A stretch of 34,839 nt of DNA from a bacterium (GTDB lineage Bacteria; Patescibacteriota; Minisyncoccia; Phycocordibacterales; Phycocordibacteraceae), in NCBI GenBank assembly GCA_021813965.1, contig JAKAJB010000001.1, forward strand, positions 1 through 34,839, in the 5' to 3' direction. Every line of letters starts with the position of its first letter. Position 1 is the stretch's first letter. The position numbers and the translations under genes are program-made. This document shows positions 644 through 26,256 of this stretch, one piece after another. The notes below the pieces were generated by a model. That model was not told where the DNA came from and did not search any database. It worked only from the letters and a program-made list of their open reading frames with translations.

Positions 644-1393
644 ATGCATGCGGGCATCAACGTCGTCCTCAAAGCGGAGCAACTTGGCTCCGTTTTCGGT
701 TTTCCCATCACGAACTCGCTCATCATGGCGTGGGCGGTGATGGCGCTGCTCATCGGCTTCGCATATTTCTTCGGGCGCTCGCTCTCTATGGTGCCGGGTA
801 AGCTTCAAGCCGGCATCGAGTGGGCATTCGAGGGTGCCATCGCCTACATGGCCGACGTGCTCGGGAGCGAAGCCCTCGCGAAGCGTTTCTTCCCGCTCGT
901 CGCGTCCATCTTCATATTCGTAGCTCTTATCAATGAGCTTGAGTTCTTCCCGGGGGTGGGTTCGCTCGGCCTCGTGCACGCCTCGGATTTCTTGCCGGTC
1001 CTCCGCGCGCCGACCACTGACCTCAACTTCACGCTCGCGCTCGCGATGATCTCGTTCTTCGCCATCGAGATCACCGGCATCGCCTCGCTCGGTTTTTTCA
1101 AGTATGCGGGGAAATATGTTAACCTGAAATCACCGATCGGATTCGCTGTCGGGCTCATCGAGCTCATGAGCAATCTTGGCCGGCTTATCTCGTTCTCATT
1201 CCGTCTCTTCGGAAATATCTTCGCAGGAGAAGTGATGGTGCTCGTCGCCGGCTACTTCCTCCCGTATGTCCTCCCGGCGCCTCTCATGGGCTTCGAGATG
1301 TTCATCGGACTCATCCAGGCGCTCGTGTTCGCGATGCTGACATTGTTCTTCATTAAGCTGGCGATCATGGATCCGCACGGAGAGCACGCCTAG
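644..1393 (+). CDS. atpB: F0F1 ATP synthase subunit a
   Basis: Polytopic membrane protein carrying the subunit-a signature LISFSFRLFGNIFAGE (essential Arg). First gene of the atp cluster. Confidence 0.95.
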   Translation: MHAGINVVLKAEQLGSVFGFPITNSLIMAWAVMALLIGFAYFFGRSLSMVPGKLQAGIEWAFEGAIAYMADVLGSEALAKRFFPLVASIFIFVALINELEFFPGVGSLGLVHASDFLPVLRAPTTDLNFTLALAMISFFAIEITGIASLGFFKYAGKYVNLKSPIGFAVGLIELMSNLGRLISFSFRLFGNIFAGEVMVLVAGYFLPYVLPAPLMGFEMFIGLIQALVFAMLTLFFIKLAIMDPHGEHA

Positions 1394-1494
1394 AAGCCTC
1401 ATATGCTTTGTTGCGGGACCCGTCGATTTCTTCCGCCGTACCACACAGTACGTCTCCAGAAATCGACCTCCCGCGCCTCGCGTCTGAAGCTTCT
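1392..1494 (+). repeat. Structured intergenic element, copy 1 (after atpB)
   Basis: Nested helices: AGAAGC/GCTTCT (1392-1397/1489-1494), GCGGGA/TCCCGC (1413-1418/1469-1474), GTCGATTTCT/AGAAATCGAC (1422-1431/1458-1467), CGTAC/GTACG (1437-1441/1448-1452). Shares the blocks TGCTTtGTT, GCCGTA and ACGTCTCC with copies 2 and 3. Confidence 0.75.
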
Positions 1495-1571
1495 GGTCGC
1501 GCTCTCGGAGAGCTCTCCGTGCGGCTCCGGGATAGGGGCTTTTATTAAAAGACATACTCATACACATATAT

Positions 1572-1799
1572 ATGGACGTAGATTCAGCACGTTTGCTCGG
1601 GATGGCGCTCGCCGCCAGTCTCGGCGTTATCGGCCCGGGCATCGGCATCGGCCTCATCGGCAGCGGTGCCATGCAGGCTATCGGCCGCAACCCGGAAGCG
1701 TCCGGCAAGATCGTCTCGAACATGATCCTCGCGATCGTGTTCACGGAAGCCCTCGGCATCCTCGCGATTGTCGTCGCCTTCATCATCAAGTTCGTCTAA
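1572..1799 (+). CDS. atpE: F0F1 ATP synthase subunit c
   Basis: 75-aa two-helix hairpin with a Gly-rich helix 1 (GPGIGIGLIGSG), the polar loop GRNPEA and the carboxylate in helix 2 (VFTEALG). Confidence 0.95.
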   Translation: MDVDSARLLGMALAASLGVIGPGIGIGLIGSGAMQAIGRNPEASGKIVSNMILAIVFTEALGILAIVVAFIIKFV

Positions 1800-1808
1800 A
1801 ACATGTCT

Positions 1809-1912
1809 GAAAGCCTCGTCTGCTTCGTTATGGGTCCCAGCGATTTCCCTTGCCGTACCTCAGGGTACGTCTCCGAAAATCGCTCTCCCATGCCTTGCAT
1901 CCGATAGCTTTC
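1809..1912 (+). repeat. Structured intergenic element, copy 2 (after atpE)
   Basis: Helices: GAAAGC/GCTTTC (1809-1814/1907-1912), ATGGG/CCCAT (1830-1834/1887-1891), AGCGATTT/AAATCGCT (1839-1846/1877-1884), CGTACC/GGTACG (1854-1859/1864-1869). Confidence 0.75.
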
Positions 1913-1937
1913 CGGCACGTTTTAAATCTCTCTACGT

Positions 1938-2384
1938 ATGAACCAACTCTTCGCAGCTTTCGGCGTCAACTGGAGCCTCATCATCGCTCAAGCGGTGAAC
2001 TTCGGCATTGTCCTCATCGCGCTCCGGTACTTCCTCTACAAGCCGATGATGACCATGCTCAATAAGCGACAGGAGCTCGTCGCGAAGAGCGTGAGTGATG
2101 CGGCAAAGGCCGAGGAACTGTTCGCCGGTGCGGATGCCGAGGCGGCCAGCCGCGTGCACGCGGCTGACACCGAGGCGGAGAAGATCGTCGCGGTGGCGCG
2201 CGAGTCGGCGAATGCGGAGAAAGCGCGCCTCCTGAAAGAAGCCGAGGAACGTGCTGTGCTCGTCGCGAAAGACGCCGAGGCGCGCGCCGCCGAGGCCCTC
2301 GAGCGGGCGCGGCGCGAGAGCGAGCGAGACATCGCGCGGCTCGCTGTCCTTGCGGCCGAGAGAGTATTGCACGATCAATCATGA
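1938..2384 (+). CDS. atpF: F0F1 ATP synthase subunit b
   Basis: N-terminal TM helix (WSLIIAQAVNFGIVLIAL) followed by a long Ala/Glu/Arg-rich helix. Position is between atpE and atpH. Confidence 0.9.
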   Translation: MNQLFAAFGVNWSLIIAQAVNFGIVLIALRYFLYKPMMTMLNKRQELVAKSVSDAAKAEELFAGADAEAASRVHAADTEAEKIVAVARESANAEKARLLKEAEERAVLVAKDAEARAAEALERARRESERDIARLAVLAAERVLHDQS

Positions 2385-2752
2385 TTGATACATACACACG
2401 TCTCCTCGAAGCGGTCGCCGAGACCGAAGACAAGGCGGCGGCAGACGCCGCGGTGACGAAGCTCATCGTGCACCTGAAAAGTGCAGGACGCATGAACATG
2501 CTCCCGAAGATTGTTCGTGAGCTGCGTAGGGTCGCATCCCGGCGACACGCACTCCGGCCGCGAGTCGAAGTCGCTTCAGAGAAGGAGTCGTCAGCCGCAC
2601 TCGCCGCTGCTTCGGCGCTCGGCATCACCGCCCGGCACGCGACCGTAAATCACTCGCTCATCCGCGGTTGGCGCGCACAAAGCGCCGGCAAACTCATCGA
2701 TCGCTCGGCGAAGCACGCGCTCACGCAGATTTATCAGAAAGTAACCGTCTAA
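2381..2752 (+). CDS. atpH: F0F1 ATP synthase subunit delta (OSCP), unusually short at 123 aa
   Basis: ATGA overlap with atpF, immediately upstream of atpA. SAGRMNMLPKIVRELRRV and the C-terminal LIRGWRAQSAGKLIDRSAKHALTQI resemble the delta/OSCP C-terminal half. Confidence 0.75.
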   Translation: MIDTYTRLLEAVAETEDKAAADAAVTKLIVHLKSAGRMNMLPKIVRELRRVASRRHALRPRVEVASEKESSAALAAASALGITARHATVNHSLIRGWRAQSAGKLIDRSAKHALTQIYQKVTV

Positions 2753-2764
2753 TTGTAACCGGGT

Positions 2765-4321
2765 ATGCAAAGCATCATTGAAAGGATAGAGAAAGAGATC
2801 GCCGCGTGGGCGCCTGACGTCGGTTCCGAAGAGACGGGCGTCGTGCGTGCGACCGGTGACGGCATCGCGGAAATCGACGGCTTGTCGAATGTCGCGATGA
2901 GCGAGATGGTGCTTTTCGACCCCACATTCGACCGCACGCTTGCTGATGCGCTCAAGGATCCCGCTCCGATCTACGGCCTGGTGCTCAACCTCGAGGAAGA
3001 CGGCGTGCGCACGGTGATCCTCGGTGAACCCTCGAAAATCTATGAGGGCATGCTGGTGCGCCGGCTCGGGCGACTCCTCTCGATTTCGGTCGGCGGCTCC
3101 CTCGTCGGTCGCGTGGTGAACCCGCTCGGGGAGCCGGTCGACGGCAAGGGCGCGACCGGCGCGAAAGAAGTGCGCCCGATCGAGCGGGAAGCGTACGGCA
3201 TCATCGATCGCGCGCCGGTGAACGTGCCGCTGCATACCGGTATCAAGGCGGTTGACGCGATGATTCCGATCGGCCGCGGACAGCGCGAGCTCATCATCGG
3301 CGACCGCGGTACCGGCAAGACCAGCATCGCTATCGATACTATCCTGAATCAGAAGAGCGAACCGGCTGCGACACGTCCCATTTGCATCTACGTCGCCATC
3401 GGCCAGAAGGAATCGAAGACGGCGAAGATCGTCGCCGAGCTTGAGAGCCGCGGCGCAATGGCGTACACCGTCGTCGTGACGGCGCCGGCGTCCGCGCCGG
3501 CGGCGCTCCAGTTCCTCGCGCCGTTCGCCGGCGCGACCATCGGCGAGTATTTCATGGAACAAGGGAGGGATGCTCTCGTCATCTACGATGATCTCTCCAA
3601 GCAGGCGGTCGCGTATCGCCAGATGTCGCTTCTCCTGCGCCGCCCGCCGGGCCGCGAAGCATACCCGGGCGACATCTTCTATCTGCACTCGCGCCTCCTC
3701 GAGCGCGCAGCGAAGCTGTCGAAGGAACGGGGCGGCGGCTCATTGACCGCGCTCCCGATCATCGAGACGCAGGAAGGCGACGTGTCGGCCTACATCCCGA
3801 CGAACGTGATCTCGATCACCGACGGACAGATCTACCTCGAAGCGGACCTCTTCAACAAGGGTCAGCGCCCGGCTATCAACGTCGGCATCTCGGTGTCGCG
3901 CGTGGGAAGCGCCGCGCAGACCAAGGCAATGAAGAAAGTGTCGGGCAAGATCAAGCTCGAACTCGCGCAGTTCCGCGAACTCGAAGCCTTCATGCAGTTC
4001 TCGAGCGACCTCGACGCTGACACGAAGCGGCAGATCGACTCGGGCCGCCGCATGACTGAGATCCTGAACCAGGGCCGCGGCGTGCCGCTCCCGTTCGAGA
4101 TGGAATCCGCGATCATCTTCGCGGCGACGAACGGTTACCTCGACGGCGTCCCGGCGGAAGAGGTCAGTGCCGTCGAAGCGAAGCTGCAGGAGTACCTCTC
4201 GCGCGAAGCGGGCGGCGTCCTCATGGCGATCAAGGAGTCGAAAGAGATCCGTGAGGAATCGGAGAAGACGCTCCGCGAGAAACTTCAGGCATTTCTCGAG
4301 CGCACGGTATCCGCCGCATAA
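2765..4321 (+). CDS. atpA: F0F1 ATP synthase subunit alpha
   Basis: Walker [16 protein letters not shown], plus the conserved stretches [42 protein letters not shown] and [24 protein letters not shown]. Confidence 0.97.
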
Positions 4322-4323
4322 TC

Positions 4324-5232
4324 ATGGCACTGAAGGATATCAAGACGAAGATCGCTGCGACACATCGCACGCACAAGGTGACGCGCGCGATGGAAGCTGT
4401 CTCGGCGGTGAAGATGCGCAAGACGCAGGCTGCGGCGCTATCCGGCCGTTCGTATGCGCGCGCCGCGCTCGGGATATTGGCTCGGCTCTCCGGCAGCGCC
4501 GATCTCGCCCGGCATCCGCTCGCGCAGGCCAGGAAGGCGGAGAAAATCGCTCTCGTCATCCTCACGAGCGACAAGGGTCTCGCCGGCGCGCTCAACAGCG
4601 GCGTCATCAAGGCCGCCGCCGAGGCCATCGCGCCGTATGAAAGCGCGGCGGTGACGGTGTATGCCTACGGCAAGAAGGGCGAGGAATATTTCGCACGGCG
4701 CGGCTACCGCATCGCGCGCGCGTTCGAGAACAAGGCGGACACTATCGAATTGTCGGTCATGGAGGAACTCGTCGCGGAGCTCTCTCGGGGATTCGCTGCG
4801 GGGCAGTATGACGAGGTGCTCGTCGCGTACAGCAATTTCAAATCGACGTTCGAACAGGTCCCGTCGGTGCGCCGCCTGCTCCCGCTTGCGCTCGCTGACG
4901 TGACCCGGCTCGTCGCGGACATCATCCCGGAGAAAGGGAAGTGGAGCGAGACGCGCGCGATCGAATCGCCGGCGGCCTATGCCATGGAGCCGGACGATTC
5001 AAATGTCATCGACATCCTCGTGCCGCGCCTCGTCGCCGTCTCGCTCTACCACTTGCTGCTCGAGTCGAAGGCGTCGGAGCACTCGGCGCGCATGGTGGCG
5101 ATGAAGAGCGCGAGCGACAAGTCGAAGGAAGTCGCGCACGACCTCACGCGGCTCTTCAACAAGATCCGTCAGGCGGCCATCACGCGCGAAGTGTCGGAGA
5201 TTATCAGCGGGCGCGAGGCATTAGCCGCGTGA
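4324..5232 (+). CDS. atpG: F0F1 ATP synthase subunit gamma
   Basis: N-terminus LKDIKTKIAATHRTHKVTRAMEAVSAVKMRK and C-terminus NKIRQAAITREVSEIISG are the gamma coiled-coil signatures. Confidence 0.95.
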   Translation: MALKDIKTKIAATHRTHKVTRAMEAVSAVKMRKTQAAALSGRSYARAALGILARLSGSADLARHPLAQARKAEKIALVILTSDKGLAGALNSGVIKAAAEAIAPYESAAVTVYAYGKKGEEYFARRGYRIARAFENKADTIELSVMEELVAELSRGFAAGQYDEVLVAYSNFKSTFEQVPSVRRLLPLALADVTRLVADIIPEKGKWSETRAIESPAAYAMEPDDSNVIDILVPRLVAVSLYHLLLESKASEHSARMVAMKSASDKSKEVAHDLTRLFNKIRQAAITREVSEIISGREALAA

Positions 5233-5262: not shown

Positions 5263-6681
<1,419 letters not shown>

Positions 6682-6684
<3 letters not shown>

Positions 6685-6780
6685 CGTCATCTGCTTCGTT
6701 GCGGGTCCCGTCGCGTTTCGTCGCCGTAGCGCGACCTACGTCTCCGAAACGCGCCTGCCCGCGTCTTGTATCTGACGTCA
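6682..6780 (+). repeat. Structured intergenic element, copy 3 (after atpD)
   Basis: Helices: TGACGTCA/TGACGTCA (6682-6689/6773-6780), GCGGG/CCCGC (6701-6705/6758-6762), CGCGTTTCG/CGAAACGCG (6712-6720/6745-6753), CGTAG/CTACG (6725-6729/6736-6740). The atpD stop codon TGA forms the first 3 nt. Confidence 0.75.
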
Positions 6781-6809
6781 TTTTCCGCGCTCTCGCCATA
6801 TAAGCAAGC

Positions 6810-7055
6810 ATGAAGACCTTCCACCTCACTATCGCCCGCGTCGGAGAAAACCTCTTCGACGGCGATGTCATCTCGGTCGCCATCCCCGGAGTTGACGGGA
6901 TGTTCGAAGTGCTCGCCGGACACGAAGCGTTCGTATCCGAACTCGCGAAGGGGACGGTGCGAGCCGTCTCCGCCGAGGGCGAGCGATTCCATTTCGAGAT
7001 AGCCGGACGCGGCGTCGCCGAAGTATCACAGAATCAGGCGACTATCCTCCTCTAG
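6810..7055 (+). CDS. atpC: F0F1 ATP synthase subunit epsilon, beta-sandwich domain only (81 aa)
   Basis: Last gene of the atp cluster. FDGDVISVAIPGVDGMFEVLAGHEAFVSEL matches the epsilon N-terminal domain pattern. There is no C-terminal helical hairpin. Confidence 0.85.
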   Translation: MKTFHLTIARVGENLFDGDVISVAIPGVDGMFEVLAGHEAFVSELAKGTVRAVSAEGERFHFEIAGRGVAEVSQNQATILL

Positions 7056-10028: not shown

Positions 10029-12866
10029 ATGGCGCGAGAGAAATTCGATCATGCGGGCGTAGAGAAGAAGTGGCAAGCAATATGGAAAGAGAAGGGGCTC
10101 TACCGCTCGACCGAAGATAAAGACAAGAAGAAAGCCTATGTGCTCGACATGTTCCCGTACCCTTCGGGCGAAGGACTTCATGTCGGCCACCCGAAAGGAT
10201 ACATCGCGACAGACATCTACTCCCGCCACAAGCGCATGAGCGGCTATTCCGTGCTGCACCCGATGGGGTGGGACGCTTTCGGCCTGCCGGCCGAGAACTA
10301 CGCGCTCAAGAACAAGGTGCATCCGCGCGCGGCGGTGGAGAAGAACATAGAGAATTTCAAGAAGCAGCTCGCGCATATCGGCTTCGATTACGACTGGTCT
10401 CGCGAGATAAATACGACCGACCCTTCTTACTACCACTGGACGCAGTGGATCTTCCTCAAGATGCTCGAACAAGGCCTCGCCTTCCAATCGAACGAGCCCA
10501 TCAACTGGTGCCCCTCCTGCATGACCGGCCTCGCGAATGAGGATCTCGATGGCGCCGTCTGCGAGCGGTGCGGCACGCCGGTCGTGAAGAAGAATCTGCC
10601 GCAATGGGTTCTGAAGATCACTGATTACGCGGACCGTATGCTCGCCGACCTCGATACGCTCAACTGGCCGGAACATATCAAAGAAGCGCAGCGCAACTGG
10701 ATCGGCCGCTCCGAGGGCGCGGAGATAGATTTCCCGATCACCGGCGGCGGAACATCCGTCAGAGTGTTCACGACTCGCGCCGACACCATCTACGGCGCGA
10801 CGTATCTCGTGCTCGCGCCGGAGCATGCGCTCGTCGAAGAGCTGATCGCCTCCGGCGTAGTGAAGAACGCCGATGCGGTGCGCGCGTATGCCGAGGCCGC
10901 GGCGGTCAAATCCGAAATCGACCGCAGCGCAGAAGGGAAGGAGAAGACCGGCGTACCGCTCGAAGGCGTCTCGGCGATCAACCCGGCGACCAAAGAAGCG
11001 ATACCGGTCTATGTCGCCGACTACGTCCTCGGCGGGTACGGGACCGGCGCCATCATGGCCGTCCCCGCGCACGACGAGCGCGATCTCGCATTCGCGCAGA
11101 AGATGCATTTGCCGGTCCGCGCCGTCATCGAGCCTATCCTTACGCAAACCGAAGGATCTGCGACCTTCCGCGCCGATGAACCGGTGACGGATTCATTCGG
11201 CGTCATCGCTCTCATACGACATTGGGAAAACGATTCCTATATCGGTCTGTATTGGCCGGGCGCGAAATGGGGAACGCTCCTCACTGGCACTATCGATGAC
11301 GGATTTTCGCCGGAAGAGACCGTCCTGAAGGAGATCCGCGAAGAGACCGGCTATATACACGCGCGCATCGTGCGGCCGCTCGGGAAGATACACAGCCGGT
11401 ACTATCACGAGCCGAAGCGGCAGAACCGCTTCGGACACGCCCCGGCATTCTACGTCGAGCTCGCCGACGGCGCGCGCGAGGATGTCTCTGCGGAAGAAGT
11501 TGCGAAACACGAGGTGCGCTGGCTCTCGCTTCCCGAGCTCCGCTCGTTCCTGACCGCCAATTCGCACCAGGTCGCTCTCGACCTCTTCGAGCGCGGCGTG
11601 TATACCGGTCCGGGCATCCTCGCGAACTCCGGCGAATTCGACGGACGTGACAGCAGCGAGGCGAAAGACGAAATCGTCGCAAGCGTCGGCGGCAAGACCG
11701 TCGTGCGGTACAAGCTGCGCGATTGGGTATTCAGCCGACAGCGCTATTGGGGCGAGCCGATTCCGGTCATCCACTGTCCCAAGGACGGCGTCGTCCCCGT
11801 TCCATATGAAGACCTCCCGGTGAAGCTTCCGGAAGTAGAGTCCTACGAACCGACCGGCACCGGCGAGTCGCCGCTCGCGGCCATCGACGAGTGGGTCAAC
11901 ACTACATGCCCGAAATGCAAGGGACCGGCGAAGCGCGAGACTAACACGATGCCGCAATGGGCCGGCTCATCGTGGTATTACCTGCGCTTCATGGACCCGC
12001 ATGACGATACGCAGCTCGTCTCCACGAAAAACGAGAAGTACTGGGCGCCGGTCGATGTGTACGTGGGCGGCGATCATGCGGTCCGGCACCTCATCTACGC
12101 GCGTTTCTGGCACAAGTTCCTCTATGACATCGGCGTCGTGAGTACGAGGGAGCCGTTCGCCCGGCTCGAATTCCTCGGCTTCATCCTGGACGAACACGGA
12201 CAGAAGATGAGCAAATCGAAGGGGAACGTCATCAACCCCGACGCGGTCATCGAAGAATACGGGGCCGATGCGTTCCGCATCTACGAGATGTTCATGGGGC
12301 CGTTCGAGAACACGACGGCCTGGAGCACGGCGTCCATCGCCGGCACCGCGCGATTCATCGAACGCCTGTGGCGCCTCCAGGATTCGGTCGCCGAGGCTCC
12401 GGTCCCGGCGCTGGATGCGCTCTTGCACGAGACGGTCCGCAAGGTAGGCGATGATATCGAGTCGTTCAAATTCAATACCGCTGTGAGCCAGATGATGATC
12501 TTCCTGAACGCCGTCGAGAAAGAAGGTTCGATCGGGAAAGAGCAGTGGCGCATGTACCTGCGCGTGCTCGCGCCGTTCGCACCGCACATCACTGAAGAGC
12601 TTTGGCAACGGCTCGGGGAGGAGGACTCCATACATCACGCATCGTGGCCCGCGTATGACGAGTCGCTGCTCATCGCGGAGGAAGTCGAAGTCACCGTGCA
12701 GGTGAACGGCAAGCGTCGCGGTTCAGTGCGGCTCGCGGCGAACGGCACGGAAGAGGACGCGGTCGCGGCGGCGCGCGCGCTCCCTGCGGTGACCGCTGCG
12801 CTCGGCAATACCGCGCCGGAGCGCGTCATTTACAAGCCGGGTAGAATCTTAAACCTCGTGGTATAA
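10029..12866 (+). CDS. leuS: Leucine--tRNA ligase with an embedded Nudix-like domain (945 aa)
   Basis: Class-I signatures PYPSGEGLHVGHPKGY (HIGH) and KMSKSKGN (KMSKS). Also the ZN1 CxxC...CxxC pair, the CP1 editing motifs TTRADTIYGATY and GTGAIMAVPAHDERD, and the C-terminal tail KPGRILNLVV. Confidence 0.97.
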   Translation: MAREKFDHAGVEKKWQAIWKEKGLYRSTEDKDKKKAYVLDMFPYPSGEGLHVGHPKGYIATDIYSRHKRMSGYSVLHPMGWDAFGLPAENYALKNKVHPRAAVEKNIENFKKQLAHIGFDYDWSREINTTDPSYYHWTQWIFLKMLEQGLAFQSNEPINWCPSCMTGLANEDLDGAVCERCGTPVVKKNLPQWVLKITDYADRMLADLDTLNWPEHIKEAQRNWIGRSEGAEIDFPITGGGTSVRVFTTRADTIYGATYLVLAPEHALVEELIASGVVKNADAVRAYAEAAAVKSEIDRSAEGKEKTGVPLEGVSAINPATKEAIPVYVADYVLGGYGTGAIMAVPAHDERDLAFAQKMHLPVRAVIEPILTQTEGSATFRADEPVTDSFGVIALIRHWENDSYIGLYWPGAKWGTLLTGTIDDGFSPEETVLKEIREETGYIHARIVRPLGKIHSRYYHEPKRQNRFGHAPAFYVELADGAREDVSAEEVAKHEVRWLSLPELRSFLTANSHQVALDLFERGVYTGPGILANSGEFDGRDSSEAKDEIVASVGGKTVVRYKLRDWVFSRQRYWGEPIPVIHCPKDGVVPVPYEDLPVKLPEVESYEPTGTGESPLAAIDEWVNTTCPKCKGPAKRETNTMPQWAGSSWYYLRFMDPHDDTQLVSTKNEKYWAPVDVYVGGDHAVRHLIYARFWHKFLYDIGVVSTREPFARLEFLGFILDEHGQKMSKSKGNVINPDAVIEEYGADAFRIYEMFMGPFENTTAWSTASIAGTARFIERLWRLQDSVAEAPVPALDALLHETVRKVGDDIESFKFNTAVSQMMIFLNAVEKEGSIGKEQWRMYLRVLAPFAPHITEELWQRLGEEDSIHHASWPAYDESLLIAEEVEVTVQVNGKRRGSVRLAANGTEEDAVAAARALPAVTAALGNTAPERVIYKPGRILNLVV
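11166..11612 (+). other. Nudix-hydrolase-like domain inserted in-frame in LeuRS (about residues 380-528)
   Basis: The 23-residue Nudix box aligns without gaps: GTIDDGFSPEETVLKEIREETGY (11286-11354) against G-x5-E-x7-R-E-U-x-E-E-x-G-U. Position 7 is F instead of E and position 15 is K instead of R. The domain is flanked by the LeuRS segments VRAVIEP and GILANSGEFDG. Confidence 0.75.
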
Positions 12867-14002: not shown

Positions 14003-14015
14003 GCTTTTTATAAAC

Positions 14016-14051
14016 ACGACGCGACCGCTTAGAAGCGGCCGCGTCGTTTTT
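14016..14051 (+). terminator. Rho-independent terminator
   Basis: 13-bp stem ACGACGCGACCGC (14016-14028) / GCGGCCGCGTCGT (14035-14047) with one mismatch, a 6-nt loop and a T-run. Confidence 0.75.
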
Positions 14052-14073
14052 ATTGCTATACTTGTCGCATACT

Positions 14074-15423
14074 ATGCTCCCATTCCTGGATCTCATCGAG
14101 AGCCGCACGAAAAAGCTGAAAAGCGAACTCGGCGTCCGCTCTTCGCCGCGGCCAATCTTCATCCTCGGCCTCGTACTTCTCGCGCTCTCATTCATCGTCA
14201 TGTCGAGCGCCGTCTCCACGGCACTGTCCCTCGCTCTCTTCCTCGCGCCGCTGTGGATACCATTCATGCTCGTCGCGGGCGCCTGGATACTTTGGATCAT
14301 CTTGAAGCGCTCGGAATACATCGCTTTTCAGAAGACGATCTTGCTTGAAATCAAGCCGCCGCGCAACTTGGCGAAGACGCCGCTTGCGATGGAGGCGATG
14401 CTCTCGGGCATCCACGCCGGCCCCTATGAAGGCACGTGGTACAAGAAATACATCAAAGGCGCCGTGCGGCCGTGGTGGTCGCTCGAGATCGTGTCGCTTG
14501 AGGGACAAGTGCATTTCTTCATCTGGACGCGAACCGGGTTCCGCCGACTCATCGAGGCGCAGATGTATGCGCAGTACCCGGGCGTGCAGATAACTGAGGC
14601 GCCCGATTACACGCGGCTCATGACCGCCTCTCCCGAAGAGTGGGAGATATGGGGATGCGATTTCGTCCATACCGATAAAGATCCGCTTCCCATCAAGACG
14701 TACGTCGAATATGGCCTCGACAAGGTGCAGAAAGAACCGGAGCAGGTCGACCCGCTCGCAAACCTCATCGAATTCATGGGCTCGATGGGGAAGGGCGAAT
14801 ACCTCTGGCTCCAACTCGTCATCCGCATGCATAAGGGCGAGAAATACGGGAAGCTCAATGAGAAAGGGAAGCCGTATACCTGGAAAGACGAGGCGGCGGA
14901 ACTCATAAAAGAGCTCCGCGAAAAGACGCGCGACACCTATACCGACCCCGCGACCGGCGAAGAGCGCCCGGGCTTCCCGAGCCCGACCAAGGGCCAGATG
15001 GAAAAGATCGCCGCTATCGAACGCAATATCTCCAAGTTGGCTTTCGATGTGGGCGCACGGGGCATCTACCTCGCGAGCCCGGAGAAGTTCGACCCGATCG
15101 TCATCTCGGGCCTCACGGGCATCTTCAAACAGTTCTCTTCGGAAGGGTGGAACGGTCTGCGCCCGAGCGGGTGGATGACGGCATTCGACGACTATCCGTG
15201 GGAGATCGGCGTCGCAAAACTGAAAGACAAGTACCGCGCCTGGATGGTCGAAGCGTATCGCCGCCGTCAGTTCTTCCATGACCCCTACAAGCTCGACACG
15301 ATGGTGATGAGCACCGAAGAGATTGCGACGATCTACCACATACCTTCCTCCTCCGTCGAGACGCCGAGCCTCGGGCGCATCCAGTCGGCGACGGCGGAAG
15401 CTCCGTCTAATCTTCCTACGTAG
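14074..15423 (+). CDS. Hypothetical membrane protein (N-terminal TM pair plus a soluble domain of about 360 aa)
   Basis: The track ORF starts at TTG 14053, but TGCTATACT (14054-14062) looks like a -10 box, so the ATG at 14074 is preferred. Two or three N-terminal TM helices. No nucleotide-binding or catalytic motif recognised. Confidence 0.7.
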   Translation: MLPFLDLIESRTKKLKSELGVRSSPRPIFILGLVLLALSFIVMSSAVSTALSLALFLAPLWIPFMLVAGAWILWIILKRSEYIAFQKTILLEIKPPRNLAKTPLAMEAMLSGIHAGPYEGTWYKKYIKGAVRPWWSLEIVSLEGQVHFFIWTRTGFRRLIEAQMYAQYPGVQITEAPDYTRLMTASPEEWEIWGCDFVHTDKDPLPIKTYVEYGLDKVQKEPEQVDPLANLIEFMGSMGKGEYLWLQLVIRMHKGEKYGKLNEKGKPYTWKDEAAELIKELREKTRDTYTDPATGEERPGFPSPTKGQMEKIAAIERNISKLAFDVGARGIYLASPEKFDPIVISGLTGIFKQFSSEGWNGLRPSGWMTAFDDYPWEIGVAKLKDKYRAWMVEAYRRRQFFHDPYKLDTMVMSTEEIATIYHIPSSSVETPSLGRIQSATAEAPSNLPT

Positions 15424-17606: not shown

Positions 17607-18016
17607 ATCACACACGTCTCCGGGTCGTCGCGACCATCATCGGCGGCTTCATCCTCATCAGCTTCATACTCTCAGTACCGCATGCTCGCGAGATTTCCCC
17701 TGTCGCTGTCCCGGAAAGCATCGCGACCTCGACGCCGGCCGTAGCGCTTCGCGATGCTTTCCGCAGAGGCGTCCACTCGATTACCGGCTCTGTCGAGGCA
17801 CCGGATCCCTGCACAGTTGTCTCCGCACAAGCCGTCCCCGTCGGTGACGCCTCAAGCACGACAGGCATCCTCATCGAAGTCACGCTGCCGGAGGATTCCG
17901 GCGTCTGTCTCCAAGTACCGTCTCCATTAAGTTTCTCCGCAACCATCACCGCGCCTGAAGGGCTTCCTATGAGCGCAACCGTGAACGGCGTCGCCGCGTC
18001 GACGACAGTACTATGA
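17603..18016 (+). CDS. Hypothetical membrane-anchored or secreted protein
   Basis: N-terminal TM or signal helix (VVATIIGGFILISFIL). 4-nt overlaps with both neighbours. Confidence 0.6.
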   Translation: MNHTRLRVVATIIGGFILISFILSVPHAREISPVAVPESIATSTPAVALRDAFRRGVHSITGSVEAPDPCTVVSAQAVPVGDASSTTGILIEVTLPEDSGVCLQVPSPLSFSATITAPEGLPMSATVNGVAASTTVL

Positions 18017-26199: not shown

Positions 26200-26210
26200 T
26201 CGCGGCATCC

Positions 26211-26248
26211 ATTGCGCCGCATGCGAAACCCGTCGCATGCGGCGCAAT
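26211..26248 (+). terminator. Perfect 16-bp inverted repeat after alaS (terminator or operator)
   Basis: ATTGCGCCGCATGCGA (26211-26226) / TCGCATGCGGCGCAAT (26233-26248) with loop AACCCG. No U-tract. It abuts the next promoter. Confidence 0.5.
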
Positions 26249-26256
26249 GCTAAAAT
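26248..26256 (+). promoter_or_regulatory. Extended -10 box TGcTAAAAT, 7 nt upstream of the ATG at 26264
   Basis: TGCTAAAAT at 26248-26256. The track start at 26237 lies inside the hairpin. Confidence 0.5.

Follow-up and report, generated by a model that had tools for sequence, protein, structure and literature searches.

The stretch of DNA analysed here (hereafter the window; 34,839 nt, positions 1 to 34,839 of contig JAKAJB010000001.1 in GenBank assembly GCA_021813965.1, from a patescibacterial genome of the Phycocordibacteraceae) carries an ATP synthase operon, atpBEFHAGDC, in which the spacers following atpB, atpE and atpD each contain a structured element of about 100 nt built from four nested helices, P1 to P4 (Table 1). 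These three copies had been noticed in a first-pass annotation made from the sequence alone, and every helix arm that it quoted, together with the TCTCC strand lying between P4 and the 3' arm of P3, is present in the sequence; copy 3 is likewise present where it was placed (6682-6780), with limits that are better drawn at 6680-6782. As described below, the element belongs to a family of at least 149 distinct sequences that is undescribed, lying outside both Rfam and the literature searched.

Table 1. Genes of the atp operon and features of its three structured elements, in window coordinates.
Feature	Position	Strand	Remarks
atpB	644-1393	+	atp operon gene
atpE	1572-1799	+	atp operon gene
atpF	1938-2384	+	atp operon gene
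atpH	2381-2752	+	atp operon gene
atpA	2765-4321	+	atp operon gene
atpG	4324-5232	+	atp operon gene
atpD	5266-6684	+	atp operon gene
atpC	6810-7055	+	atp operon gene
Module copy 1 (P1-P4)	1392-1494	+	overlaps the atpB stop codon TAG, 1391-1393
Module copy 2	1809-1912	+	9 nt past the atpE stop codon; 106.2 bits with the three-copy model
Module copy 3	6680-6782	+	overlaps the atpD stop codon TGA, 6682-6684; 110.7 bits with the three-copy model
Conserved 5' block, example UAUGCUUUGUUGCGGGA	1402-1418	+	family consensus TCTGC-NNN-GTT-RCGGG; includes the invariant U of the U.G pair
Central block GCCGTAC-loop-GTACGTCTCC	1434-1457	+	P4 plus pyrimidine-rich unpaired strands
Small hairpin and T-run upstream of atpE	1523-1548	+	terminator-like site in the scan; native spacer, not module
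Composite atpB gene-end hairpin, copy 1 at its tip	1364-1533	+	inverted repeat 1364-1394/1503-1533, 31 nt, 81% complementary
Extended hairpin of copy 2	1797-1924	+	paired arms TAAAACATGTCT (1797-1808, its first bases being the atpE stop TAA) and CGGCACGTTTTA (1913-1924)

Each copy folds as a single long hairpin of ~103 nt, with energies of -45.2 kcal/mol for copy 1 (z -7.65), -37.9 kcal/mol for copy 2 (z -5.46) and -45.3 kcal/mol for copy 3 (z -4.95) relative to dinucleotide shuffles, none of which (0 of 200) matched the native fold energy. Consensus folding of the three copies with RNAalifold gave 35 pairs, 15 of which had changed on both sides. A covariance model of the three copies, built and run as the first-pass annotation had asked, recovered these copies and no others when the window was searched with filters off (106-116 bits, copy 1 scoring 116.5 bits; next best match, 16 bits); a later model of 99 family members again matched only the same three places in the window, with 108.7 bits for copy 1. 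A spurious 135-aa open reading frame (ORF) at 1403-1810 (+) begins inside copy 1. Also, in the related locus L006 (10781-11167) atpE is called at 128 aa, its true length being ~75 aa, as ORF callers run through the element.

Beyond the window, a pattern representing the centre of the element was scanned against one genome per species and a pattern of its outer blocks against metagenomes; family totals and per-copy statistics given here refer to copies among the matches listed, which for the metagenomes comprise at least 120 loci. The centre pattern identified 31 genome loci, all of them in Patescibacteria, where we estimate that chance would yield ~1-2, and 30 of the 31 contained a full-length match to the model, with additional divergent copies found besides. 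Nearly all of the metagenome loci (at least 120) were confirmed by the model. Samples from the Hainich aquifer were the source of many copies. The family thus comprises at least 162 matches, at least 149 of them distinct in sequence, mostly from Patescibacteria of the Paceibacteria/Kaiserbacteria type, on host contigs of 39-72% G+C. Judging from copies that did not themselves trigger retrieval of a locus, there is ~1 copy per 50-100 kb, and one 566-kb contig holds at least eight copies within the 31 kb sampled. Since both patterns require particular blocks, the apparent conservation of those blocks among the copies retrieved is inflated. Two loci (L124 3194-3276 and L135 8731-8813) match the outer-block pattern without matching the model, having a rearranged 3' half (GGCCGGGCGCGGACGCAAGCCTTGCATCTGC) and retaining complementary outer flanks, TTTTGAGCG/CGCTCAAAA.

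Verified hosts outside the Patescibacteria were of two kinds only, Variovorax-like and Bacteroidales-type. In the former, a thiolase gene that is part of a fatty-acid oxidation operon and is 97-99% identical to Variovorax proteins is followed by a GC-rich copy in five to six cases; Variovorax gossypii itself has no copy after its thiolase gene. A separate feature of the V. gossypii locus (L166 9588-10004) is a DUF559 endonuclease-like ORF lying between the fadB-like and thiolase genes and overlapping the thiolase start. The Bacteroidales-type contig has one copy, after nqrF, in which the stop codon, a 13-bp outer stem, P1 and the core are followed by a canonical terminator. A viral origin was considered and rejected, as the seven viral-contig matches of a looser, centre-only pattern were at chance level and none matched the model. 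Similarly, blastn against three collections returned no phage, plasmid or Escherichia coli counterpart. The Rfam comparison suggested in the first-pass annotation found no family at the gathering score of Rfam 15 anywhere in the window, nothing overlapping the element at E values up to 10 in 1300-2000, and, in 20 further loci, one tmRNA and one tRNA, neither of which overlapped the element. Literature on Patescibacteria repeats, on MITEs (miniature inverted-repeat transposable elements), on RNA motifs and on terminators yielded no description matching it. At another locus (L164), a family member at 1658-1758 (-) lies 18 nt from a tmRNA gene at 1776-2122 (+).

The proposal that compensatory base changes preserve the helices is borne out across the family. 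In an alignment of 97 distinct copies to the model, standard pairs occupied 88.7% of cells. Shuffles reached 70.7 +/- 0.4%, and sliding the partners gave no more than 49%, a wide margin even though the alignment, being fitted to the structure, favours pairing. Both sides had changed in 28 of the 35 pairs, and cells with double changes numbered 634 against 180 +/- 13 in shuffles. P3 and P4 vary freely in copies found by a pattern that ignores both helices, P4 appearing as CGTAC, CGTAT, CGTAG, CAATAG, CGACC and GCATC. The anatomy of the family is that of an imperfect palindrome of ~100 nt, in which P1 to P4 are separated by fixed, asymmetric internal loops that are pyrimidine-rich on the gene strand. 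Conservation of the intervening sequence is observed independently of the search: columns of the 5' block are invariant or nearly so in 32 copies found by the pattern omitting that block, and the CTC..P4..CTCC layout is also present in copies found by the pattern omitting the central block. A single U.G pair is kept unchanged in 95 of the 97 copies.

Such features might be expected of a cis-acting RNA that processes polycistronic transcripts, either by self-cleavage or with a dedicated protein partner, for instance an RNase or RNA-binding protein, bound by its conserved internal loops. The search-independent loop conservation and the invariant U.G pair are consistent with this, as are the conservation of the element above synonymous sites, its fixed orientation relative to the gene and the near-absence of copies with an inverted centre (1 of 138), all of which are described below. 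We nevertheless regard this explanation as improbable, given that the element has no similarity to ribozyme or protein-binding families of Rfam, that the loops of the transcribed strand are pyrimidine-rich and its stems contain A:C rather than G:U, and that the same partner would be needed alike in Patescibacteria, Comamonadaceae and Bacteroidales.

Examination of gene context, using approximate gene calls made by a simple longest-ORF rule, revealed that a co-oriented ORF of at least 60 codons ends beside 108 of the 140 evaluable copies. Measured from the stop codon to where the model begins, the gap has two sharp peaks, one of 71 copies at 7-13 nt and one of 26 copies at -5 to +1 nt, and the stop codons of the adjoining ORFs are TAG in 57 cases, TAA in 40 and TGA in 11. 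When only ORFs of at least 100 codons are considered, 62 copies have a co-oriented neighbour only, six a convergent neighbour only, and 17 lie between convergent genes. Downstream, a co-oriented ORF (at least 80 codons) follows 124 of 142 copies at a median distance of 37 nt, and a canonical terminator distinct from the element lies within 90 nt downstream of 16 of the 142. This indicates that the element is normally transcribed with its upstream gene and usually lies inside an operon. Genes recurring upstream are those for L31 (10 loci), S18, S10, S15, S21, SecY, AhpC and the products of atpB, atpE and atpD, while RpoB, RpoC, GyrA, LeuRS, RNase J and Ndk are among those represented once. The module sits at the ends of well-expressed genes.

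This distribution bears directly on the idea, put forward in the first-pass annotation, of a regulatory RNA peculiar to ATP synthase by which the atp subunits would come to be expressed at different levels. The window copies do follow atpB, atpE and atpD, where subunit stoichiometry changes, and other genomes also have copies after one or another of these genes. However, atp operons account for only four of the 31 genome loci, the same module follows dozens of unrelated genes, relatives whose atpB is 89-90% identical have no copy, and there is no distinct atp subfamily, the nearest relatives of copy 3 following other genes. We consequently regard an atp-specific role as very improbable.

The pairing of each element continues outside P1, such that the ~100 nt originally given for its extent describes the core of a longer hairpin. 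Complementarity reaches ~12 nt further on either side (1379-1391 with 1495-1506 in copy 1, 1797-1808 with 1913-1924 in copy 2), and the stop codons of atpB, atpE (1797-1799) and atpD all lie within the stems, inside P1 in copies 1 and 3 and as the first bases of the outer stem in copy 2. In the composite hairpin at the end of atpB, the 5' arm consists of the last ~30 nt of coding sequence and the stop codon, and the 3' arm lies in the spacer; a 190-nt fold of this gene end reaches -92.8 kcal/mol (z -6.0). The extended hairpin of copy 2 ends 13 nt upstream of the atpF start at 1938. At copy 3, an inverted repeat (6675-6689/6773-6787) is 93% complementary, with P1 reaching AAAATGACGTCA/TGACGTCATTTT and leaving four U after the stem; the 3' end of the copy lies ~27 nt upstream of the atpC start at 6810. 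Across the family, the outer stem has a 5' arm that starts at the stop codon of the preceding gene or includes it. The outer 12-nt flanks are complementary at 9.0 of 12 positions within their own copy compared with 5.3 of 12 between copies, and outer-stem pairing is maintained at 85-93% to 23 nt from the core, with background levels beyond.

The 5' arm of the outer stem is native coding sequence: the C-terminus of AtpD, SIDDVK, is identical in relatives without the module. The 3' arm tracks synonymous changes in the arm opposite, as in ATT/ATA at the end of atpD (L067 versus L085) and in GCGATAA, GCAGTAA and GCAATAA after the L31 gene. In the module-free loci L001 and L005, the end of atpB still folds with its stop codon at the hairpin apex, and the window module is located exactly at the apex of the atpB gene-end hairpin; the end of an S18 gene without a module likewise forms a similar stop-anchored hairpin, TAAGAATTTTTTCGAAAATTCTTTA. 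These findings suggest a gene-end hairpin whose loop is taken up by the ~100-nt module (P1 plus core), with an outer stem that differs from copy to copy and, in part at least, predates the module. The empty sites at atpD have almost no spacer, so that here the 3' arm either arose with or after the module or was lost together with it. The small hairpin and T-run upstream of atpE (Table 1) are kept in relatives with and without the module. Elsewhere in the window, near-perfect hairpins with 15-21-bp arms are found at other gene boundaries (14010-14053, 17712-17763 and 26210-26249), and hairpins of this sort seem usual at gene ends in the genome.

Comparison of orthologous copies provides a measure of age. 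Relative to the related locus L043, copies 1 and 2 of the window are 94.2% and 90% identical, respectively, copy 2 being also 90% identical to the copy after atpE in L034, against a baseline of 83% for atpB and atpE, 61-64% for third codon positions and 73% for the rest of the spacer. Copies sharing a genome, on the other hand, are only 62-68% identical (47-75% in the 566-kb contig), and the nearest relative of a copy lay, in 31 of 44 cases, after the same gene of a different genome. Together, these findings point to an old family that is vertically inherited and constrained, with sporadic gain and loss. A recent duplication, against which the first-pass annotation had already argued, is rejected, since the window copies are mutually 65-72% identical and their orthologues elsewhere 90-94%.

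Homologues of atpB show the window to come from a patescibacterium of the Paceibacteria/Kaiserbacteria type, and gain and loss are evident among its close relatives. Loci L001-L005, with atpB 89-90% identical, have none of the three atp copies (spacers of 60, 16 and 1 nt), L006 and L007 have one, after atpB, and L033 and L034 have copies after atpE. The 13-nt atpD-atpC spacer of L005 (15852-15864), CTCCTGCTTCGTA, shares nine bases with the 5' block of the element (CTGCTTCGT) and may, on this resemblance, be a deletion scar retaining a remnant of that block. In one of 138 copies, that of L006/L007 (= L041) at 10760-10861 (GGAGACGTATGAAGCATACGGCAAA), the centre is inverted between the P3 arms, which looks like a hairpin 'flip' event. 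An unrelated palindromic insert occurs in the atpE-atpF spacer of L005 (11070-11135; ACCCTGTTAAAT...ATTTAACAGGGT) and L006 (11210-11355), indicating that the same operon positions attract more than one kind of hairpin element.

With membership, anatomy, position, orientation, covariation, conservation and gain and loss of the family established, we tentatively favour, with confidence a little short of even, an interpretation in which it represents an old module, comparable to repetitive extragenic palindromes (REPs) and enterobacterial repetitive intergenic consensus (ERIC) sequences, that became nested in gene-end hairpins and may now act as a punctuation hairpin between cistrons or in 3' untranslated regions (UTRs). 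The module would have entered the loops of pre-existing gene-end hairpins and would later have been passed on by vertical descent, now and then being cleanly lost. As a hairpin between cistrons or in the 3' UTR, transcribed together with the gene before it, it could shield the upstream cistron from 3'-to-5' decay or supply a processing site. Transcription of the operon would presumably not be halted, because the terminating ribosome would cover the base of the stem; masking by the ribosome of a hairpin a few bases past a stop codon has been reported (PMC4824070). Within the window, the atpB, atpE and atpF-atpD segments would each be favoured over whatever follows them.

Several observations weigh against a punctuation hairpin acting in the messenger RNA (mRNA), among them a strand asymmetry. 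On the gene strand, and excluding the invariant U.G pair, 175 paired cells are A:C or C:A compared with 61 that are G:U; the corresponding counts are 118 and 50 in the outer stems peculiar to each copy and 82 and 74 just outside the stem. In 143 of 145 copies the more stable fold is that of the strand opposite the gene, at -62.8 kcal/mol against -51.1 kcal/mol for the gene strand (a difference of ~12). These pairing statistics do not look like those of selection on the mRNA strand. Furthermore, the loops are conserved across phyla though a stabiliser needs no conserved loop sequence, and the closest relatives manage without the element, making any benefit dispensable. We found no transposase, conserved termini or recent copies (RAYT transposases, introduced below, were not searched for), and mobility is consequently inferred only from presence/absence differences and host range. 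Lastly, the inflated conservation of pattern-required blocks noted above arises because both scan patterns were taken from the element itself.

Several controls bear on the asymmetry. Random 130-mers from the same loci showed no strand bias in folding, and in six copies with reversed context the asymmetry follows the orientation of the element (8 to 1, though the numbers are small). Composition skew predicts a ratio of only ~1.1-1.35 to 1, compared with an observed 2.4-7 to 1, and was rejected, if not fully excluded, as the cause. Read from the sequence, the conserved UC/UC loop becomes tandem G.A on the antisense strand, and the CUC/CUCC loops become purine-rich. The asymmetry could reflect selection on the non-mRNA strand, G:T repair in extruded hairpins, or selection against an over-stable mRNA hairpin. 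Two antisense candidates were set aside: a kink-turn in the central loop, which on inspection would require strand registers in conflict with P4, and an antisense small RNA with its own promoter, as the site scan detected no minus-strand promoter-like sites near the window copies, and the distance from the end of the copy to the following start codon is only ~13 nt for copy 2 and ~27 nt for copy 3.

The asymmetry also counts in favour of a strand-specific DNA element, in which a single-stranded DNA (ssDNA) hairpin of the opposite strand is recognised by a hairpin-specific recombinase or transposase, in the manner of integron attC bottom strands, REP/RAYT or the ends of IS200/IS605, and any effects at the RNA level are incidental. 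The greater antisense stability, the tolerance of G:T-type wobbles on that strand where the other carries A:C, the persistence of this preference in the outer stems with no bias just outside, its dependence on the element's own orientation, and its excess over what sense-strand composition predicts would all follow, and a DNA hairpin is stable with loops of the tandem G.A or purine-rich kind. Presence/absence differences among close relatives, the occurrence of the family in three phyla and the one copy with a flipped centre also fit. Conversely, the copies are old and vertical, at 62-68% identity per genome without recent bursts, and immobile selfish copies should decay, yet these are conserved above synonymous sites. 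Their termini are not conserved, no split halves flanking an ORF occur in 1.2 Mb of loci, the attC signature (RYYYAAC ... GTTRRRY) is absent, the genes upstream are core genes rather than cassettes, and one pair is invariantly U.G on the gene strand. We view this alternative as a serious one that is nonetheless unlikely.

A stronger antisense hairpin could also be used in transcription. As a polar insulator, the element would present a weak, ribosome-masked hairpin in the sense direction and a strong hairpin ending in GGCUUUU in the antisense direction, stopping antisense transcription from entering highly expressed genes; in a variant of this explanation, it would be a site for handling supercoiling downstream of such genes. 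REPs and bacterial interspersed mosaic elements (BIMEs) have such a link to gyrase. The conserved A-run and T-run flanking P1, the location of copies at the 3' end of genes for ribosomal proteins, ATP synthase and RNA polymerase and the evident passage of sense transcription into downstream genes agree with an insulator. Against it, the window copies lack nearby minus-strand promoter-like sites, the T-run measures only 4 nt and is paired with the A-run, several copies already precede a bidirectional-looking terminator, and a double-stranded DNA site would not require covariation; as such, we consider an insulator quite improbable. A broader formulation, also unlikely, is that of a previously unrecognised class of structured elements of Patescibacteria, Comamonadaceae and Bacteroidales whose functional form would be the strand opposite the gene, as ssDNA or antisense RNA, positioned at the apex of stop-anchored gene-end hairpins and acting either as a substrate for recombination targeting hairpin loops or as a polar insulator.

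Among known systems, the family is most like intergenic palindromes of the REP and ERIC type, and a REP- or MITE-like repeat was the closest of the options offered in the first-pass annotation. ERIC sequences (also intergenic repeat units, IRUs) are imperfect palindromes of ~127 bp, closely matching the ~127-130 nt of the present element with its outer stem. Both occur in transcribed intergenic regions within operons or in 3' UTRs, both form long RNA hairpins, and both are highly conserved in sequence with locations that differ between relatives. ERIC sequences often have TA at both ends and exert orientation-dependent effects on upstream mRNA. The present element differs in having copy-specific ends with a conserved centre, in having a stop codon built into its stem, in being co-oriented with the upstream gene by ~10 to 1, and in its hosts, which are Patescibacteria and a few other phyla. 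A hand-assembled family consensus compared by blastn with 11-base words had no match in the E. coli collection of 20,395 records from 5,426 genomes.

REPs, together with BIMEs and REPINs, are likewise transcribed extragenic palindromes found at gene 3' ends and between operon genes. They stabilise upstream mRNA, act as strand-specific ssDNA substrates and are mobilised by RAYT (REP-associated tyrosine) transposases, and their hairpin loops are targets for insertion, for example by IS1397. In contrast to the REP unit of 20-40 nt, which carries a GTAG tetranucleotide and is present in hundreds of copies per genome, the unit found here is a single four-helix module of ~100 nt with ~1 copy per 50-100 kb, and GTAC or GTAG occurs only inside the covarying P4 helix, so that it does not qualify as a REP unit.

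Correia elements of Neisseria and other MITEs are comparable in being hairpin elements of 100-150 bp that are co-transcribed with their neighbours and differ in presence or absence, as seen here at the atp operon and at the V. gossypii thiolase gene. In MITEs, however, the terminal inverted repeats are conserved and near-identical copies numerous, whereas the termini of the present element vary and its copies within a genome are 62-68% identical. At the outer ends TA...TA or CTAG...CTAR is frequent, though lacking in many copies; both TA and CTAG being their own reverse complements, a direct repeat, as left by a target-site duplication, would be indistinguishable from an inverted one. The search of 1.2 Mb of loci for separated 5' and 3' halves flanking an ORF, as expected of a parent insertion sequence, found none, and a classical MITE with such a parent was rejected on the basis of both results.

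Integron attC sites resemble the element in several respects, being imperfect palindromes (57-141 bp) directly 3' of a co-oriented ORF, with structure conserved above sequence and with the strand opposite the ORF folding best. The present element is conserved at its centre rather than its ends and follows core housekeeping genes, and an attC identity was rejected on account of the missing R''/R' boxes, as a GTT in the 5' half lies opposite CCTY without an AAC partner; no cassette arrays were seen within the ~8-20 kb of each locus. Mycobacterial interspersed repetitive units (MIRUs) are intercistronic operon repeats with a single orientation relative to transcription, a placement that the present element shares. 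MIRUs differ in consisting of tandem 46-101-bp units with small coupling ORFs, the present element being a single hairpin with no conserved ORF.

Intrinsic terminators share with the element a hairpin located just past a gene, and the A-run and T-run that border P1 recall those of a bidirectional terminator. At ~4 nt, however, the T-run is short, and it is paired with the A-run. Requiring a G+C-rich hairpin followed directly by a U-rich tract (at least five T in eight), a terminator scan found no full-element terminator at copies 1 to 3, the only sites flagged being a fragment internal to copy 3 and the native spacer's hairpin at 1523-1540. The earlier statement that a U-tract is lacking is therefore correct as regards a classical terminator tract, while needing amendment for the four U that follow the stem of copy 3. 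Neither do the copies mark the ends of transcription units, as most precede a co-oriented ORF, in agreement with the original view that these are not classical terminators. In sum, the family resembles REP/ERIC-type palindromes most and fails the defining tests of a classical MITE, a REP, an attC site and a terminator.

Patescibacteria genomes are tiny and contain little non-coding DNA, and a structure of ~130 nt conserved above synonymous sites is for that reason unlikely to be idle. As a well-defined and strongly covarying motif, the family is suited to the annotation of uncultured genomes, where it would explain spurious ORF calls in spacers such as the over-long atpE mentioned above. It also offers a concrete system in which to study operon punctuation in organisms without much of the usual RNA-decay and regulatory machinery, and is set apart from ordinary REP-like repeats by its presence in three phyla and by the better structure of its non-mRNA strand.

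Two further features were observed at the atp operons surveyed. In L006, a 119-aa ORF with no Pfam match on record (14608-14967) lies between atpG and atpD and is absent in the window. Upstream of the operon in the window is a small ORF (313-561, -), followed by a canonical A-stem-T hairpin at ~262-295; its homologues in L001-L007 have a SWIB domain (PF02201).

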